DNA of 64,000 nucleotides from Bacteroidales bacterium (GTDB lineage: Bacteria; Bacteroidota; Bacteroidia; Bacteroidales; WCHB1-69), in the NCBI GenBank assembly GCA_024400785.1, contig JAKSME010000001.1, forward strand, positions 16,198 through 80,197, read 5' to 3'. The stretch's first letter is position 1. Every line of letters starts with the position of its first letter. Positions 5,388 through 13,790 of this stretch are shown here, in pieces. The position numbers were made by a program, and so were the translations under genes. The notes beneath the pieces were generated by a model. That model ran no database searches, was not told where the DNA came from, and was given only the letters and a program-made list of their open reading frames with translations.

Positions 5388-5709
5388 AGGAATCTCTGTT
5401 GATCTATGAAAATGGTTATATCATCTCCTTATCAGAATTTTTCACTCCCATACCGTATTTTACTTTTTTGGTGACTTCTAATTAAAACTAATTGATTTTC
5501 AGGAATATATAACGTAAAATGGCACGATTTTCGTTATTATTTTTCCTGTTTTGTTAAATAAATATCAATTTAACAGAATCAATATTTTCGAGCCGATTCC
5601 AACTGCGATATGCCACTTCGCTCCAAATGTTTTATTAAAAAAATGATATAAATCTTTGATAATCAAATAATTATTTGTATATTTGCAGAATAATTTGAGC
5701 GACATTAAA

Positions 5710-6090
5710 ATGGAAAAGGCAAACCTACAAACGGACCGGAATCTGCGGATTATTTGATTTGGAAGAAAACACCGCAAAATTGTGCTCGCTCGGCAATCCT
5801 TTGGAAAAATTGTTGAAAGTGGTTGATTTCGAGATGTTTAGAGAAACCCTTGAAGCGGGGCTTTACAAAGAAAAACTGACGAATGTCGGAGCGAAACCAT
5901 ACGATTACGTGCTGATGTTCAAGATTCTCGGGCGCGGGTTGAACACGTGTTCGGCTATTGCGAGCAGAGCATGCGCGGGATGTTCAGTCGCGCCGTGGGT
6001 TTTGCGCGAAATGCCGCCAGAAACATCCTGACAAGCTTGGTTTACAATATGATGCGTTACGAGCAAATTCAAAGACTTGGAATGAATTAG
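5710..6090 (+). pseudogene. IS5-family (DUF772/DDE_Tnp_1-type) transposase remnant, frameshifted and internally deleted
   Basis: ATG at 5710 reads MEKANLQTDRNLRII*. After a frameshift the sequence continues LFDLEENTAKLCSLGNPLEKLLKVVDFEMFRETL...KPYDYVLMFKILG (N-terminal DUF772-like). Around 5935 it switches frame into VEHVFGYCEQSMRGMFSRAVGFARNAARNILTSLVYNMMRYEQIQRLGMN* (typical IS5 C-terminus). The catalytic DDE core is missing. Confidence 0.6.
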
Positions 6091-6096
6091 TTTAAT

Positions 6097-6285
6097 ATAA
6101 CACATTGATTATCAATAAATTACCCCCCTAAAATTTTTATAAAAATATTGCTAAACTGTTGGGAATGAAAAAATAGTATGTAAATTTGCAGCGTCGTTTC
6201 CTTTTGAAATTTTGTTTAACGGACTTCGCAAAATTCAGAGGGACGGTGCGAAAAGAGTAAAAATAGAAGTCCCCTTTTGATTATA
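6097..6285 (+). repeat. Repeat R1 copy a (~190 bp promoter + leader module)
   Basis: By-eye alignment to 7335-7523 shows only scattered mismatches and one 3-nt indel. Contains a TTG -33-like element, a TAAATTTG -7 box (6181-6188) and a leader hairpin. Confidence 0.85.
6181..6188 (+). promoter_or_regulatory. Bacteroidota-type -7 promoter box TAAATTTG inside repeat R1a
   Basis: Perfect TAnnTTTG, with TGTTG 19 nt upstream as a -33-like element. Conserved in copy R1b. Confidence 0.5.
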
Positions 6286-6408
6286 GGTGGCTTGCTCTTT
6301 GCGGTTACTATGGTATTAATGATAAAAAAGAGAATCCTTATTACCCATATTATAATGGAGATACAATTAACAAGCATAAATTCGGCACTGTTTTTATGAG
6401 AGAGTCTG

Positions 6409-7287
6409 ATGAATTTAACAACAGAATACCCTATGGTAAAATCAAAAAAAATCATTAACTTTAAGATATTTCTTTATACAATCTCTTTCTTATTATCCTA
6501 TTTCCTTTCTTCTTGCAACGGACCGAAAGCTGTCTCCTGTAGTAGTATTACCAATGACTGTATCATGACCCTGACAGATTCCACAGACCAACATCTTGTT
6601 TTTTTCCAATGGGTGAAAATCAACAATAGCTGCTATGAAGCAAAGTGCATCTATACCTTCATAGAGCCCAATCCCACCTTTCAATTGATTAAGGGCAAGG
6701 ACACGTTGTCTTTTGAGAGGGATGCGCTATTTATTTGCGATACGGTTGCTGATCGCAACCAAGATGGTTATGTGGATTGGATCATTCGGTCTCGCATGTC
6801 GCGCGGCAAGATGGAGGTGGTCTATTATTTTATCCCTGAAGAAAAACGACTTGACCCCATTCCTGACACGATTTTTGATGAGCCTTGGGAACAAGATTAT
6901 TTTTGGTCATTTGATACGGTGGCCTATTGTATTCCCATTGATAGCCATCGCAAAATAGAATTTACCGAATTAATAGTAATTCTTGCCGATGAGGAAAAAC
7001 GCTGCGACTCCGCATACGGGAAGCCTATATTGATTGACGGAAGGGATACCATTTCTCTTAGTTACGATGCGGAATATGAAGGTGCTCACATTATCTCGCC
7101 AGACAAACAAAAGGTGGCGTTTCTCACCCGACGTTGTTCTTGGTTGGGTAATGTATGGATAGACCGTGAGGATTGCTGCATTCTTGATTTGGAAAGCAAA
7201 GAATTTTCATTTGGTGTATGCGGCGACGGGCATTTCGACAATCACAACCGCTGGGTGTGCGATGGAGAATTGATGTGGGTATGGTAG
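6409..7287 (+). CDS. Hypothetical lipoprotein
   Basis: 292 aa ORF downstream of R1a. Hydrophobic N-terminus ending in LSSC (lipobox-like). No recognisable domain. Confidence 0.55.
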   Translation: MNLTTEYPMVKSKKIINFKIFLYTISFLLSYFLSSCNGPKAVSCSSITNDCIMTLTDSTDQHLVFFQWVKINNSCYEAKCIYTFIEPNPTFQLIKGKDTLSFERDALFICDTVADRNQDGYVDWIIRSRMSRGKMEVVYYFIPEEKRLDPIPDTIFDEPWEQDYFWSFDTVAYCIPIDSHRKIEFTELIVILADEEKRCDSAYGKPILIDGRDTISLSYDAEYEGAHIISPDKQKVAFLTRRCSWLGNVWIDREDCCILDLESKEFSFGVCGDGHFDNHNRWVCDGELMWVW

Positions 7288-7334
7288 TAATGCCCTGTTT
7301 CAAATATACAGAGATTAGGCATGATTTGATATTT

Positions 7335-7523
7335 ATAACACATTGGTTATCAATATATTACCCCACCTAAAATTTTTATAAAAATATTACTAAACTGTTG
7401 GGAATGAAAAAATAATATGTAAATTTGCAGCGTCGTTTCCTTTTGGAATTTTGTTTAACGGACTTCGCAAAATTCAAAGGTGCGGCGTGAAAACATTAAA
7501 AATGGAAGTCCCCTATTGATTAT
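7335..7523 (+). repeat. Repeat R1 copy b (~190 bp promoter + leader module)
   Basis: Direct repeat of 6097-6285. The 30 nt before it weakly resemble the end of the IS5 remnant. Confidence 0.85.
7420..7427 (+). promoter_or_regulatory. Bacteroidota-type -7 promoter box TAAATTTG inside repeat R1b
   Basis: Perfect TAnnTTTG at the same relative position as in R1a. Confidence 0.5.
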
Positions 7524-7722
7524 TTTAGTAGATAAAACTGACAATGGACATCCCCGTTTTATAATCATAGACCAAATTAAATGTAGAGAATGGGATGATT
7601 TATCGAATTTAGATACAGAATTATTAGATATAACAATTAGAAATTATGAACATGCTTGCGATATCGCAAATAGACACAATTTTGATTCTTCTATAAACCT
7701 ATGCTGCATTCAACGAAAATAA
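7480..7722 (+). CDS. Small hypothetical protein (doubtful; GTG start inside repeat R1b)
   Basis: 80-codon ORF beginning within the repeated leader and overlapping the next gene by 22 nt. No family recognised. Confidence 0.25.
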   Translation: MRRENIKNGSPLLIILVDKTDNGHPRFIIIDQIKCREWDDLSNLDTELLDITIRNYEHACDIANRHNFDSSINLCCIQRK

Positions 7723-8330
7723 TCTTCGCTTCACTAATTGTTGCATATATGGCCCTTCTGGTCTCCTGCGAGAAGAAGCCTCAAATGAAAGACCACTATT
7801 ACCACTATATTTCAAAAGAATCTGACAGCATCGTTCCTTTTCACTCCCAAGGAGACATCCAATGTCTGAAAGCGAATCTATTTATTGCAGACGAGAACCT
7901 GTACATCGGTCTTCCATACTATATTGACACTTTACAAGGCGAGAACCAGATTGTTCAGAAAAAAGTCGGCACTATACTTTTCAATCCTGTAGATTACGGC
8001 ATCAACATTGACACTGCCTCCTATCAATTTATAGTAAAGGATATGATTGCTAAGGATGAGAACCACGTATATGCCTATCCTAAAGGATTGTTTAAATTGC
8101 CTTTTATCCAAGTACTAGACCTCAACCCTGCTCACACTATTGTCCTTGACCATGAAGCGACCTATCTGCGAGATGACAGCCTCGTATATTGCTTTCCCAC
8201 CAACACCTATCTGGACGTTAAAGCAAAAGATTTTGAAGTAATATATATCCAACACGTACCATTTGGAAAATATCACAGTATACTATACTATTGGGACGAA
8301 CCACAAGAATTACCCACGACATCAGAATGA
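7701..8330 (+). CDS. DKNYY-like lipoprotein
   Basis: 209 aa. Signal sequence ending LVSC. Repeated motifs of the DKNYY type (KDENHVYAYPKG, RDDSLVYCFP), each followed by FEV/IY. Confidence 0.6.
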   Translation: MLHSTKIIFASLIVAYMALLVSCEKKPQMKDHYYHYISKESDSIVPFHSQGDIQCLKANLFIADENLYIGLPYYIDTLQGENQIVQKKVGTILFNPVDYGINIDTASYQFIVKDMIAKDENHVYAYPKGLFKLPFIQVLDLNPAHTIVLDHEATYLRDDSLVYCFPTNTYLDVKAKDFEVIYIQHVPFGKYHSILYYWDEPQELPTTSE

Positions 8331-8971
8331 AACCGCTAACATTCCCATTGTTATTCCTCGCTCTCCTGCTGTGCGTCGCCTGCAACCGACATTGCCCATG
8401 CACGCAGCAAGGCACTGGTTTCGTTTGGCATTCTGAACCCAAAGAGGCAAATGTCCTCCACATATCTATTCATCCGTCAATACTCCCCTTCTCTGGAAAA
8501 ACCCTCGAAGTGAAATATGTAAAGATGAATGGCGCTCTACATCCTGTGTCAGAGGTGGTGGATTGCAAATCTTTCATCAATATCTACGACAGCGAGGACT
8601 CTGTTGCTCGGAGAAACAACGAATATTATCGTATAAACCCTATCGTGAACTATTTCAAGGACAAAAATTACCTTTACTTTTATATAGAACAAGAAAAACC
8701 TCCTTACGACGATTTTCTGACCGTGATGGGAAAATGCGATGACTATGAGGTACTTGGAGGAGAATATTTGCGAGTGGGTGACAAAATCTACTGCGAAGGA
8801 ATTGAGGTTGTAGATGCCGATATGGCTACTTTTCATACCATAGAAGTCTTACGGAAATATAGCGAATGGCAGGCTATCTTGGGGAAAGACAAGAATCATA
8901 TCTACCTGTATGACAAGCCGATGACCAAAAGCCAATCGGAAGGTTTTTATATTTCTGACTTTCCTTATTGA
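8327..8971 (+). CDS. DKNYY-like secreted/lipoprotein
   Basis: ATG at 8327 overlaps the previous stop (ATGA). Signal peptide MKPLTFPLLFLALLLCVAC. Motifs KDKNYLYFY, GDKIYCEGIEVVDADMATFHTI and GKDKNHIYLYDKP match the DKNYY family pattern. Confidence 0.6.
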   Translation: MKPLTFPLLFLALLLCVACNRHCPCTQQGTGFVWHSEPKEANVLHISIHPSILPFSGKTLEVKYVKMNGALHPVSEVVDCKSFINIYDSEDSVARRNNEYYRINPIVNYFKDKNYLYFYIEQEKPPYDDFLTVMGKCDDYEVLGGEYLRVGDKIYCEGIEVVDADMATFHTIEVLRKYSEWQAILGKDKNHIYLYDKPMTKSQSEGFYISDFPY

Positions 8972-9916: not shown

Positions 9917-10684
9917 ATGAAACCGCTAACGTTCACATTGTTGCTTTTTGCCTTCCTGCCGTGCATCGCCTGCGGACAATTGGCGACTGAAGAATTGGAC
10001 GGCACAGCAACTCCCGTCCCCGACACGAGTGCTATAATTGCTACCGTGGAACGGAATTTGGCCACAATGGAAGAAATGCCCCATGACAATATTGAGGACG
10101 ACACCCTTCCGGAAAATCTCGCTCAACAGCTGCGTCTTTTCTTTTCATGCTCCTCCATAAAAGAAATCAATCGGTTCATCGACCCTGAAATTGGACTAAC
10201 TGTTCTTTACGCAAATGGCTGCTATCCCGAATATTCCCAATTGGATAGTCTTGACCCTAACAGAAATGTCTATCAATACACTCTTCCTTTTTGGATTTCT
10301 GAATCGCTCTTTCAATCTATTGATTTCAAGAATTTAAAAATCAATCATTTCCAATATACATACACTCCTGTCTTCCAGCGGGAAACCATTTTCAGGGAGG
10401 GCGTGTTCATCGACCAAAGTGAGGACAAAACGGTGATGAGCAATGCCATCAAGAACCTCATCCTAACACGGGGTAAGGAGGGTGCGGATGCGAGCTACCT
10501 GAAAAAACTGAAAAAAGATCTTGCCTTTTATAAAAAGATGGAAAAGAACTCTCTACGGATTGTTATAACCGAAAATAAGTCATCCACTATTGGAGGGGAA
10601 ACAAGGATTTTCCACTTCCATAAAAAGAACGGCAGATTGTACCTCTTCCTCATTGATTTTTATTCCATTGACGGGAGCGTGTAA
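9917..10684 (+). CDS. Hypothetical lipoprotein with shared MKPLTF signal-peptide cassette
   Basis: ATG at 9917 (the ORF-track start at 9911 is TTG). Signal peptide MKPLTFTLLLFAFLPCIAC. The mature part is unrelated to the neighbouring genes. Confidence 0.55.
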   Translation: MKPLTFTLLLFAFLPCIACGQLATEELDGTATPVPDTSAIIATVERNLATMEEMPHDNIEDDTLPENLAQQLRLFFSCSSIKEINRFIDPEIGLTVLYANGCYPEYSQLDSLDPNRNVYQYTLPFWISESLFQSIDFKNLKINHFQYTYTPVFQRETIFREGVFIDQSEDKTVMSNAIKNLILTRGKEGADASYLKKLKKDLAFYKKMEKNSLRIVITENKSSTIGGETRIFHFHKKNGRLYLFLIDFYSIDGSV

Positions 10685-12288: not shown

Positions 12289-12440
12289 CAGAAGAGGGTA
12301 AGATTTTTACGACATCTTATATACTATTTCTTCCGTTCTCAGCGTTTTATTTCTCGGATTTTGTGCAACGGACTCCACAAAGTCTATGTCAAGTGCGTGT
12401 CATGCCATGATGAAAAACAGATGTCCATTGAAAAAAAATT

Positions 12441-13790
12441 ATGTCTAAAAAGTCCAATCTTTTCCTGTTTTTGAAGGCCCTCATCATTTTGGGGCTGATT
12501 CTTATTCTTTTAATTCCGGCCATGCTGATCAGTAATTTGATTGACGAAAGAGAGTCATTGAGAAGCGAAGCCGTAGTAGAAGTTTCCGGGAAATGGGCCC
12601 ACGACCAAAACCTGGTCGGTCCCTACCTCTCCATCCCCTATTACAATGAAAATGGGAAAGCCTCTGAGAAATGTTTCTTGCAGGTGATGCCTGAAAACTT
12701 GAAGATTACAGGCGATGTGACCACAGAAACTTTACATAGAGGTATTTACGATGTGGTGGTGTACCACTCGAACCTGAAAATCACGGGCAATTTCAGCAAA
12801 AAAGATTTTAAAGATATTCCCTTGGAGGAGCTCTGCCTCGAACGCGCCATTTTGTCAATGGGTATCACCGATTTACGAGGAATAGAGAACCAGTTAGACA
12901 TTCAACTTGGCGACCAAAACTATCGCTTTGAGGCCGGACTTTATAATCAGGACGTGGTCTCTGGTGACGGGATACATGCCATCGTCAATCTTGAAGATAC
13001 CTGTTCAACAGATGATTCTCTTTTGAACAACATTCCCTTCTCCATGTCGCTTTCGCTGAAAGGTTCTGAGCAACTGATGATTTCGCCTATCGGCGGTAAT
13101 ACTGATGTGAATCTCCACTCCAACTGGAACAATCCCAGTTTCACGGGCGATTTTCTCACTTCTGACAAGGAAATCCGTAAAGACGGCTTTGATGCACATT
13201 GGAAAATGATGCACCTCAACCGCGATTTCCCGCAATCATGGAACAGTCATGAAAAGAATTTTTTTCCCCAACACACCACCTTTGGAGTCACTTTCCTATT
13301 GCCGGTGGATGGCTACCAGAAGGCCACCCGCTGCGTGAAATACTCGATCCTCTTCACTACCATTACCTTCCTGGTCTTCTTCTTTGTGGAGATTTTGCGC
13401 AAAAAACGTGTCCATCCGCTACAATACCTGTTGGTGGGCGTTGCGTTGATTGTGTTTTACACGTTGCTGGTTTCCCTCTCCGAGTATTTGGCCTTCAATT
13501 TAGCCTATATTCTTGCCGCTTTGGCCACCATCATCCTCATCACCCTATACTCTAAAGCCGTGCTGAAATCATGGGCACAAGGCGGTTTTGTGGGCGGTGT
13601 GCTGGTGGTGCTTTACGGTTATCTTTTTACCATCATCCAGCTACAGGATTACGCCCTGTTGGCAGGCAGTATCTTTATCTTCATCATCCTCGGTGTGGTG
13701 ATGTTCTTCTCACGGAAGGTGGATTGGTACAATTTGAACGGAGGCGGCAAAGATGAGGGTAACACCCCGCCGCCACCAGCAATACAATAA
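12441..13790 (+). CDS. creD: Cell envelope integrity inner-membrane protein CreD
   Basis: 449 aa. N-terminal TM segment followed by LIDERESLRSEAVVEVSGKWAHDQNLVGPYLSIPY, then a C-terminal cluster of TM helices, as in the CreD family. Confidence 0.8.
   Translation: MSKKSNLFLFLKALIILGLILILLIPAMLISNLIDERESLRSEAVVEVSGKWAHDQNLVGPYLSIPYYNENGKASEKCFLQVMPENLKITGDVTTETLHRGIYDVVVYHSNLKITGNFSKKDFKDIPLEELCLERAILSMGITDLRGIENQLDIQLGDQNYRFEAGLYNQDVVSGDGIHAIVNLEDTCSTDDSLLNNIPFSMSLSLKGSEQLMISPIGGNTDVNLHSNWNNPSFTGDFLTSDKEIRKDGFDAHWKMMHLNRDFPQSWNSHEKNFFPQHTTFGVTFLLPVDGYQKATRCVKYSILFTTITFLVFFFVEILRKKRVHPLQYLLVGVALIVFYTLLVSLSEYLAFNLAYILAALATIILITLYSKAVLKSWAQGGFVGGVLVVLYGYLFTIIQLQDYALLAGSIFIFIILGVVMFFSRKVDWYNLNGGGKDEGNTPPPPAIQ

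Follow-up and report, generated by a model that had tools for sequence, protein, structure and literature searches.

Introduction

Insertion sequences (ISs) that bear outward-facing promoters are a standard route by which Bacteroides turn on silent resistance genes, and to our knowledge the transcribed part of such IS ends has so far been treated as plain sequence. IS1168, IS1169, and IS1186 are members of the IS5 family with complete, outward-oriented promoters, and activate nimA/B, nimD, and cfiA (PMC9330008, Table 2); the distances between nim genes and their ISs are constant, for example 19 nt for nimA-IS1168 (PMC13597742, 2026). On the plasmid pBFO18_1, the stop codon of the IS1169 transposase lies 175 nt before the ATG of nimD, and this interval holds, in order, TAAATTTG, a hairpin, an A-rich stretch, and the IS1169 terminus ...ATAGAACTCACC, which ends 8 nt before the nimD ATG. 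Here, we describe a related element in a 64,000-nt stretch of DNA (the window) from an uncultured member of the Bacteroidales (family WCHB1-69), the genome of which is a 2.1-Mb metagenome-assembled genome (MAG) of 179 contigs. The window contains a direct repeat of ∼190 bp (copies a and b), and this repeat is very probably the right-hand ∼180 bp of an IS5-family IS of the IS1168/IS1169 clade, comprising an outward promoter and a folded leader (coordinates are collected in Table 1).

The Direct Repeat Is the Right End of an IS5-Family Element

The two copies (6096-6284 and 7334-7523) are 92.1% identical over 190 nt by blastn, and a repeat search divided the same region into two blocks (6123-6284/7362-7523 at 92%, and 6096-6145/7334-7383 at 82%). 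An earlier reading of the window, made from its letters without database searches (hereafter the sequence-only reading), had noted this repeat with a single 3-nt indel; the degree of similarity stands, while the lone indel is 1 nt long in a MAFFT alignment (CCCC-CC vs. CCCCACC). Its placement of the start of copy a, 6 nt past the stop codon (TAG, 6088-6090) of a transposase remnant, is correct, as is its observation of a TTG and a perfect TAAATTTG box in both copies; the TTG lies 19 nt upstream of the box in each. A blastn search of the whole genome with the repeat returned 17 matches on 12 contigs and, with hundreds of copies across the family, its recurrence is far beyond chance. The copies in this genome are built of two layers: a transposase 3′ end with a spacer of ∼90 nt, and a promoter box with ∼87 nt predicted to be transcribed. 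The latter layer also occurs alone, in most cases with the ATG of some unrelated gene 5-30 nt farther on.

Intact elements were found in related genomes (L053, 1456 bp; L061, 1471 bp; and L117, 1457 bp), and most copies with an intact transposase measure 1447-1471 bp. These elements begin with the left terminal inverted repeat (IRL) GGTGACTTCTAATTA, encode a 363-aa DDE transposase, and finish exactly at ...ATAGAAGTCCCC. The sequence-only reading had interpreted the repeat as the right end of an IS with an outward promoter, and the intact elements bear this out: instead of stopping before position ∼6097, they traverse all of the repeat and terminate precisely at ...GAAGTCCCC, equivalent to position 6274 of the window. 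The IRL has the form GG[T/G]GAC[T/C]TCTAATTA in 16 copies, and the right terminus (IRR) is always ...GA[A/G]GTCCCC. In L053 (G010:C39), the IRL GGTGACTTCTAATTATTTCTCTC lies upstream of the intact transposase gene, and matches the reverse complement of the right end, GGGGACTTCTATTTTTACTCTTT, at 17 of 23 positions. The L053 transposase scores 251 bits against the IS5-family model NF033581 of NCBIfam (cutoff 140) and contains the Pfam domains DUF772 and DDE_Tnp_1. The nearest annotated transposases are those of IS1168 (46% amino acid identity) and IS1169 (45%), over 96% of the length, both from Bacteroides fragilis; as these relatives carry outward promoters, they support the same interpretation and make this an element of a known kind. 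A search with the C-terminal peptide of the transposase recovered 24 transposase ends in 10 of the 19 genus genomes, with 52-100% amino acid identity to the remnant in the window, and all but two of these ends have the promoter/RNA module 70-200 nt downstream on the same strand.

Copy a is part of an internally deleted derivative of 805 bp. The sequence-only reading had sought the left end of the element at ∼5666, where the motif TTGATAATCAA is indeed present (5655-5665); the left end is at 5470, however, and the motif is not an IS terminus. Likewise, the near-palindrome TTGATTATCAA, with which both copies begin, is located inside the element and is not a terminal repeat. A tblastn search of the 179-contig assembly found no intact transposase, only deletion derivatives; because several copies lie right at the ends of contigs, the assembly may have missed intact ones. 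An internal transposase deletion (residues ∼77 to 311) is common to the window remnant and to G000 C68:6-244, which suggests that the 805-bp derivative was itself copied, or mobilized in trans, in the manner of a non-autonomous element. At G000 C122:9293-9329, neither transposase nor leader accompanies the spacer motif ATATAACACATTGATTATCAAC...ACCCCCCC, which is found by itself ∼130 nt ahead of a gene for a secreted protein.

The earlier proposal that copy b represents a solo right end is supported. The weak resemblance noted earlier between the sequence ahead of copy b and the transposase end is genuine, since blastn extends the copy b match into the transposase ends of other copies, and the 45 nt ahead of it are a decayed transposase 3′ end; neither an IRL nor a transposase body was found upstream of copy b. 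The origin of copy b requires correction, however: the two copies share ∼10 nt outside the IS terminus (TTTTGATTAT vs. TATTGATTAT), and copy b is therefore probably a duplication of copy a with its flank, and not a separate insertion. Of 18 copies, four (L053, ata; L061, tta; L099, ata; and the window element, ttt) are flanked by exact 3-bp duplications, where ∼0.7 would be expected by chance given the AT-rich flanks; the support for a 3-bp target duplication is thus above chance, weaker than hoped, and not decisive.

A Conserved Folded Leader RNA

The predicted outward transcript comprises 87 nt up to the last base of the IS. Within it, the two arms of a hairpin differ wholly in sequence between subfamilies (GCGTCGTTTCCTTTTGAAATTTTG/CAAAATTCAGAGGGACGGTGC, GCGTCAACTTTTCAGTCTTTG/CAAGGTCTGGGGAGTTGGC, and GCGTTGTTTGCTTATCTTGATG/CATCAAGGTCGGCGGCAACGC), yet pair in each. 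MAFFT mis-registered the 5′ arm between subfamilies, and a covariance model (CM) was therefore used for alignment; it contained the nested hairpin only, was built from 11 window-type copies, and aligned 57 hits (50 distinct; set 1). An independent second set consisted of 38 distinct copies from other genera (set 2). For the hairpin together with a helix between its loop and the tail of the leader (GGACUUC/GAAGUCC), 92.8% of alignment cells in set 1 were paired, compared with 38-54% in slid controls, and 95.0% in set 2, compared with at most 49%; over both sets, the slid controls ranged from 37 to 54%. Pairs that had changed on both sides numbered 18 in set 1 and 17 in set 2, and the observed covariation score was reached in 0 of 500 shuffles. 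At one position of the loop-tail helix, set 2 has U-A in 26 sequences and C-G in 11. The loop-tail helix by itself is 96-97% paired and, because it is absent from the covariance model, this pairing is not due to fitting. In the hairpin, G·U pairs outnumber A·C by 244 to 22 (set 1) and 184 to 10 (set 2), and the totals for the loop-tail helix are 27 to 9. Such an excess of G·U would be expected of RNA of the outward strand, as opposed to a double-stranded DNA palindrome or RNA of the opposite strand. Taken together, the comparative alignments demonstrate that the leader is an RNA-level fold under selection.

With RNAalifold, the copies of the window's own genome yielded the loop-tail helix alone, and folds of single sequences gave weak z-scores; divergent subfamilies had to be included for the hairpin to emerge clearly. 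An Rfam scan at E ≤ 1 returned only a chance nuoG hit (E = 0.1, below the gathering score). A third helix (TTCGCA/TGCGAA) was also considered, as it seemed compensatory in two copies, and was rejected because it performed no better than shuffles across 50 sequences.

Two variants of the leader were observed. At G000 C13:22465-22807 (L007/L009), G017:C41:12863, and G003:C77:16261, the leader is broken directly after CAGCATCGTTTTTTT by insertions of at least 110 nt of CGGTTAAACG/CGGTTAAGCG-type repeats, and in C13 the leader resumes after the insertion. In L125 (G134:C5), two leader RNAs (2090-2173 and 2182-2265) stand in tandem, 9 nt apart, 3′ of a full-length transposase.

Predicted Outward Promoter and Genomic Setting

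The boxes of the predicted outward promoter of copy a fit the Bacteroides -33/-7 consensus (quoted in PMC9330008). Of 92 copies, 81 have an exact TAnnTTTG box. Among solo ends the figure is 36 of 42, and in these ends positions farther upstream of the box have decayed to 40-60% conservation. We infer that the promoter fires from its match to the consensus, from its conservation in solo ends, and from the experimental behavior reported in the literature for IS1168 and IS1169.

We classified 93 unique copies by their surroundings, taking as a co-oriented open reading frame (ORF) any with an ATG start and at least 60 aa. A full-length transposase lies upstream of 8 copies and a partial transposase upstream of 25; a further 42 are solo ends, with no transposase within 1.5-1.9 kb, and the remaining 18 have an upstream flank too short for classification. 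A co-oriented ORF of this kind begins no more than 60 nt past the IS terminus in 69 of the 93 (median distance 23 nt), vs. 24.7% of random genome positions, and in 53 of 93 this ORF also has a signal-peptide-like N-terminus (2.7% at random). The bias toward gene starts is also present among copies with a full-length transposase (7/8). This pattern fits ISs that inserted, or were retained after insertion, in the interval separating a gene from its native promoter, the function of which would then be taken over by the promoter of the IS.

Among 151 genomes of the family, the covariance model detected the RNA in 90, which belong to 9 of 22 genera and have 1-23 copies each; outside the family, it was detected in only 3 of ∼248 genomes of an order-wide sample. 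Near-identical copies are present in different genera, which indicates horizontal spread. The carriers named by an exact-pattern scan are MAGs of uncultured Bacteroidales, which come from the rumen of goats, sheep, and yaks and from the faeces of horses; Candidatus Limimorpha caballi is among them.

Comparison With Known Systems

The layout of the element is the same as that of IS1168 and IS1169: transposase stop codon, ∼90 nt, a TAnnTTTG-type box, a hairpin, an A-rich linker, the terminal repeat, and, within a few nt, the activated gene. In both, the loop is complementary to the terminus (GAGTTC/GAACTC in IS1169 and GGGTTC/GAACCC in IS1168). Across IS1168, IS1169, and four clade members from other Bacteroidales families, this complementarity is kept while the letters differ, with further loop/terminus pairs in the clade such as GGGTTC/GAACTC (one G·U) and GGATTC/GAACCC (one A·C). 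The window-type covariance model scores neither IS1168 nor IS1169, the nucleotide sequences being too diverged, and the homology of their leaders is drawn from reading of the sequences and single-sequence folds. Unlike IS1168 and IS1169, the elements described here are hosted by uncultured Bacteroidales of the rumen and horse gut, precede genes for secreted proteins and lipoproteins instead of resistance genes, and reach up to 23 copies per genome, mostly as decayed or solo ends.

More distant relatives (∼47% identity) have a simple hairpin and a T-run at the position of the leader. In five of these IS5 relatives (L154, L155, L165, L169, and L170; ∼47% amino acid identity), a GC-rich hairpin followed by TTTTT lies just inside the terminal repeat and takes the place of the promoter and pseudoknot; this terminator-like arrangement is possibly the ancestral state of the leader hairpin. 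In three IS1169-like elements from other Bacteroidales families (L147, L148, and L151), a (GATA)n microsatellite of 8-11 units, a possible slippage-prone tract, stands between the transposase stop codon and the outward promoter region.

Among folded RNAs of other ISs, the pOUT/RNA-OUT system of IS10 (Simons et al., 1983, cited in PMC9330008) reportedly has a promoter near the IS end that points outward and produces a stably folded stem-loop RNA. It resembles the present leader in having an outward promoter close to the IS end and a folded RNA; RNA-OUT is located at the end where the transposase starts and is antisense to the transposase mRNA, whereas the leader is at the opposite end, on the transposase strand, and does not overlap the transposase 5′ end. 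A conserved, structured right-end RNA is likewise known from the TnpB elements of IS200/IS605 and IS607, in the form of a guide RNA (omega/reRNA) (PMC11061315). This RNA guides the TnpB nuclease; here, the sole ORF encodes a DDE transposase and there is no sign of RNA guidance, and a TnpB/IscB-type guide RNA was ruled out because of this adjacent ORF. Finally, FopS/GibS are multicopy small RNAs of Bacteroides with canonical promoters and ∼12-15 copies per genome (PMC11697453). Whereas FopS RNAs combine a single-stranded 5′ seed with a terminator hairpin, the leader is IS-borne, lacks a terminator, and continues into the downstream gene; membership of the FopS/GibS group was rejected, as Rfam gave no match for the leader.

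Proposed Role of the Leader and Alternative Explanations

The element is ordered as IRL, ∼200 nt, putative transposase promoter, 363-aa DDE transposase, ∼90-nt spacer, predicted outward promoter, and 87-nt segment. The outward promoter is of the Bacteroidetes type (TTG-N19-TAnnTTTG), and the segment predicted to be transcribed ends at the final base of the IS. In the proposed mechanism, when such an element lands just upstream of a co-oriented gene, the gene would be transcribed from the IS promoter and the leader would become its 5′ untranslated region (UTR). The leader is predicted to fold into an imperfect hairpin of ∼21 bp that begins a few nt from the 5′ end, and the apical loop (GGACUUC) would pair with the terminal repeat (GAAGUCC) across the A-rich linker, producing an H-type pseudoknot. 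A hairpin at the extreme 5′ end is a known stabilizer of mRNA in bacteria. With the leader folded on itself, the A/U-rich start region of any downstream gene would stay accessible, and the fold may act as a self-contained 5′ stabilizer or insulator that uncouples downstream expression from the surrounding sequence. Both window copies, a (in the 805-bp deletion derivative) and b (a right-end fragment), have a lipoprotein-like gene downstream.

Our tentative proposal, which we put forward with somewhat less than even confidence, is that the outward transcript of the IS1168/IS1169 clade starts with a previously undescribed, selected fold, in which loop and terminal repeat pair, and which constitutes a portable, self-insulating expression leader. 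If this is true, the leader would explain the activation of any gene a few nt past the IS end, including the nim genes, as well as the fact that Bacteroidales of the rumen and horse gut retain dozens of decayed right ends as promoters for genes of secreted proteins. A number of observations weigh against the overall explanation of the repeat as an IS right end with an outward promoter and a folded leader. The hairpin alignments were fitted by a model that itself contained the hairpin. Because the loop duplicates the core of the IRL, a constraint at the DNA level could account for the match between loop and terminus. The promoter activity and the transcript 5′ end of the window copies are predictions from their sequence. 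The distances from IS terminus to downstream ATG in the window (135 nt for copy a and 188 nt for copy b) exceed the family median, and other promoters may therefore contribute. Beyond the four copies with exact duplications, the flanks of the other copies among the 18 have no matching 3-bp duplication. Moreover, no orthologous empty site was found for the window locus, the left flank of which has no orthologue in the 18 other species of the genus.

The match between loop and terminus could instead represent a third DNA copy of the core bound by the transposase (IRL, internal site, and IRR), with the three sites co-evolving and only the long hairpin functioning as RNA. In every clade examined, loop and IRL core have an identical sequence (GACTTC in the present elements, GGGTTCT in IS1168, and GAGTTCT in IS1169), and all three sites agree in the intact elements L053, L061, and L117; in addition, loop and tail are just 40 nt apart, such that recombinant copies inherit both together. 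In 5 of 8 informative copies, however, the IRL deviates and yet loop and tail are still complementary. The 27 to 9 excess of G·U over A·C in the loop-tail helix would not be favored by identity at the DNA level, and the 96-97% pairing of this helix arose outside the alignment model; on balance, we regard a purely DNA-level origin of the match as rather unlikely, though still a serious alternative. It is also unlikely, and more clearly so, that the outward RNA serves the IS itself, either by driving the transposase across an IRR-IRL junction or by pairing of its tail in trans with transcripts that enter the left end, which would damp external activation of the transposase. By construction, tail and IRL are complementary, and retention of promoter and fold across transposases down to 45% identity implies selection on the element itself. 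The transposase has its own predicted promoter ∼200 nt inside the IRL, however, and solo ends devoid of transposase keep the box and the fold before genes, which fits use at the level of the host.

Two further explanations dispense with the IS as the source of the leader or of the repeats. Under one of these, the leader would be a chromosomal cis-regulatory element (riboswitch-like or protein-binding) of a secreted-protein regulon, which the IS merely targets. This we consider highly improbable, because every copy of the RNA stops at one and the same base, the tip of an inverted repeat that has its other half upstream of the transposase, and because near-identical copies occur across genera, with sporadic occurrence outside the family; IS1168 and IS1169 on B. 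fragilis plasmids have the same layout as well. These observations outweigh the absence of a transposase within 1.5-1.9 kb of ∼45% of copies, the high conservation of unpaired nucleotides in the loop and linker, and the enrichment of secreted proteins among downstream genes, all of which would accord with a regulatory leader. Under the other, the repeats would be recombination sites of an integron-like cassette array that shuffles lipoprotein genes, as might be imagined from direct repeats a and b bracketing one lipoprotein gene inside an array of such genes. IS right ends account fully for the repeats, and elsewhere in the genome the repeats are single and precede unrelated genes, which, on the evidence of the repeats themselves, leaves the cassette explanation barely credible.

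The analysis indicates that a conserved folded RNA with RNA-strand-specific substitutions is common to rumen MAGs and to the clinical elements IS1168 and IS1169. The IS-end layout appears to be used widely beyond antibiotic resistance, since the majority of species in one uncultured family of Bacteroidales have it, with as many as 23 copies in a genome. Most copies are located 6-60 nt ahead of a gene for a secreted or surface protein, and IS ends may accordingly be a substantial source of promoters for the cell-surface repertoire. In Bacteroidales genetics, the 180-bp IS end is a candidate for use as a compact expression part. In annotations, repeats of this kind are best labeled as IS remnants, and not as new regulatory motifs or cassette junctions.

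Features of the Window

Table 1. Features of the IS derivative, the solo right end, and their surroundings, in window coordinates (CM, covariance model score).
Feature	Position	Strand	Basis or remark
Internally deleted, non-autonomous IS5-family element, 805 bp	5470..6274	+	IRL and IRR match the ends of intact copies
Left terminal inverted repeat GGTGACTTCTAATTAAAAC	5470..5488	+	Same IRL in 16 copies
TATATTTG box, putative transposase promoter	5678..5685	+	Same arrangement before the intact L053 transposase
Transposase remnant	5710..6090	+	Residues ∼1-75 fused to 311-363, DDE core deleted; tblastn with the intact 363-aa transposase
Predicted outward promoter, copy a	6159..6188	+	TTG 6159-6161, 19-nt spacer, TAAATTTG 6181-6188
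Structured leader RNA, copy a	6188..6274	+	Arms 6191-6214/6229-6249; CM 112.8 bits
Loop GGACTTC paired with tail GAAGTCC, copy a	6221-6227 and 6266-6272		IS terminus 6274
Lipoprotein-like gene 3′ of copy a	6409..7287	+	ORF; lipobox-like ...FLSSC
Copy b, solo IS right end	7300..7513	+	∼35-45 nt of decayed transposase 3′ end, spacer, TAAATTTG 7420-7427, leader RNA 7427-7513; CM 103.5 bits
Lipoprotein-like gene 3′ of copy b	7701..8330	+	ORF (...ALLVSCEKK)
Third, decayed leader RNA copy	12339..12428	+	CM with filters off, 21.9 bits, E = 0.004

A Pfam search with the products of the two lipoprotein-like genes matched no family in either. The 190-bp direct repeats could mediate loss or amplification of the gene between them (6409-7287). 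The third leader copy lies 13 nt before an ATG at 12442 and has a degenerate -7 box.

Two similarities were also noted among sequences bordering these features. Beyond the terminus of copy a, positions 6275-6293 share TAGGTGGCTT at a similar offset with the flank of another copy (G000 C47:2048-2075); a common target or a conserved feature of small size could account for this. Farther downstream, two lipoprotein genes have near-identical 57-nt starts that encode the signal peptide (8327-8383 and 9917-9973; 81% identity by repeat search).

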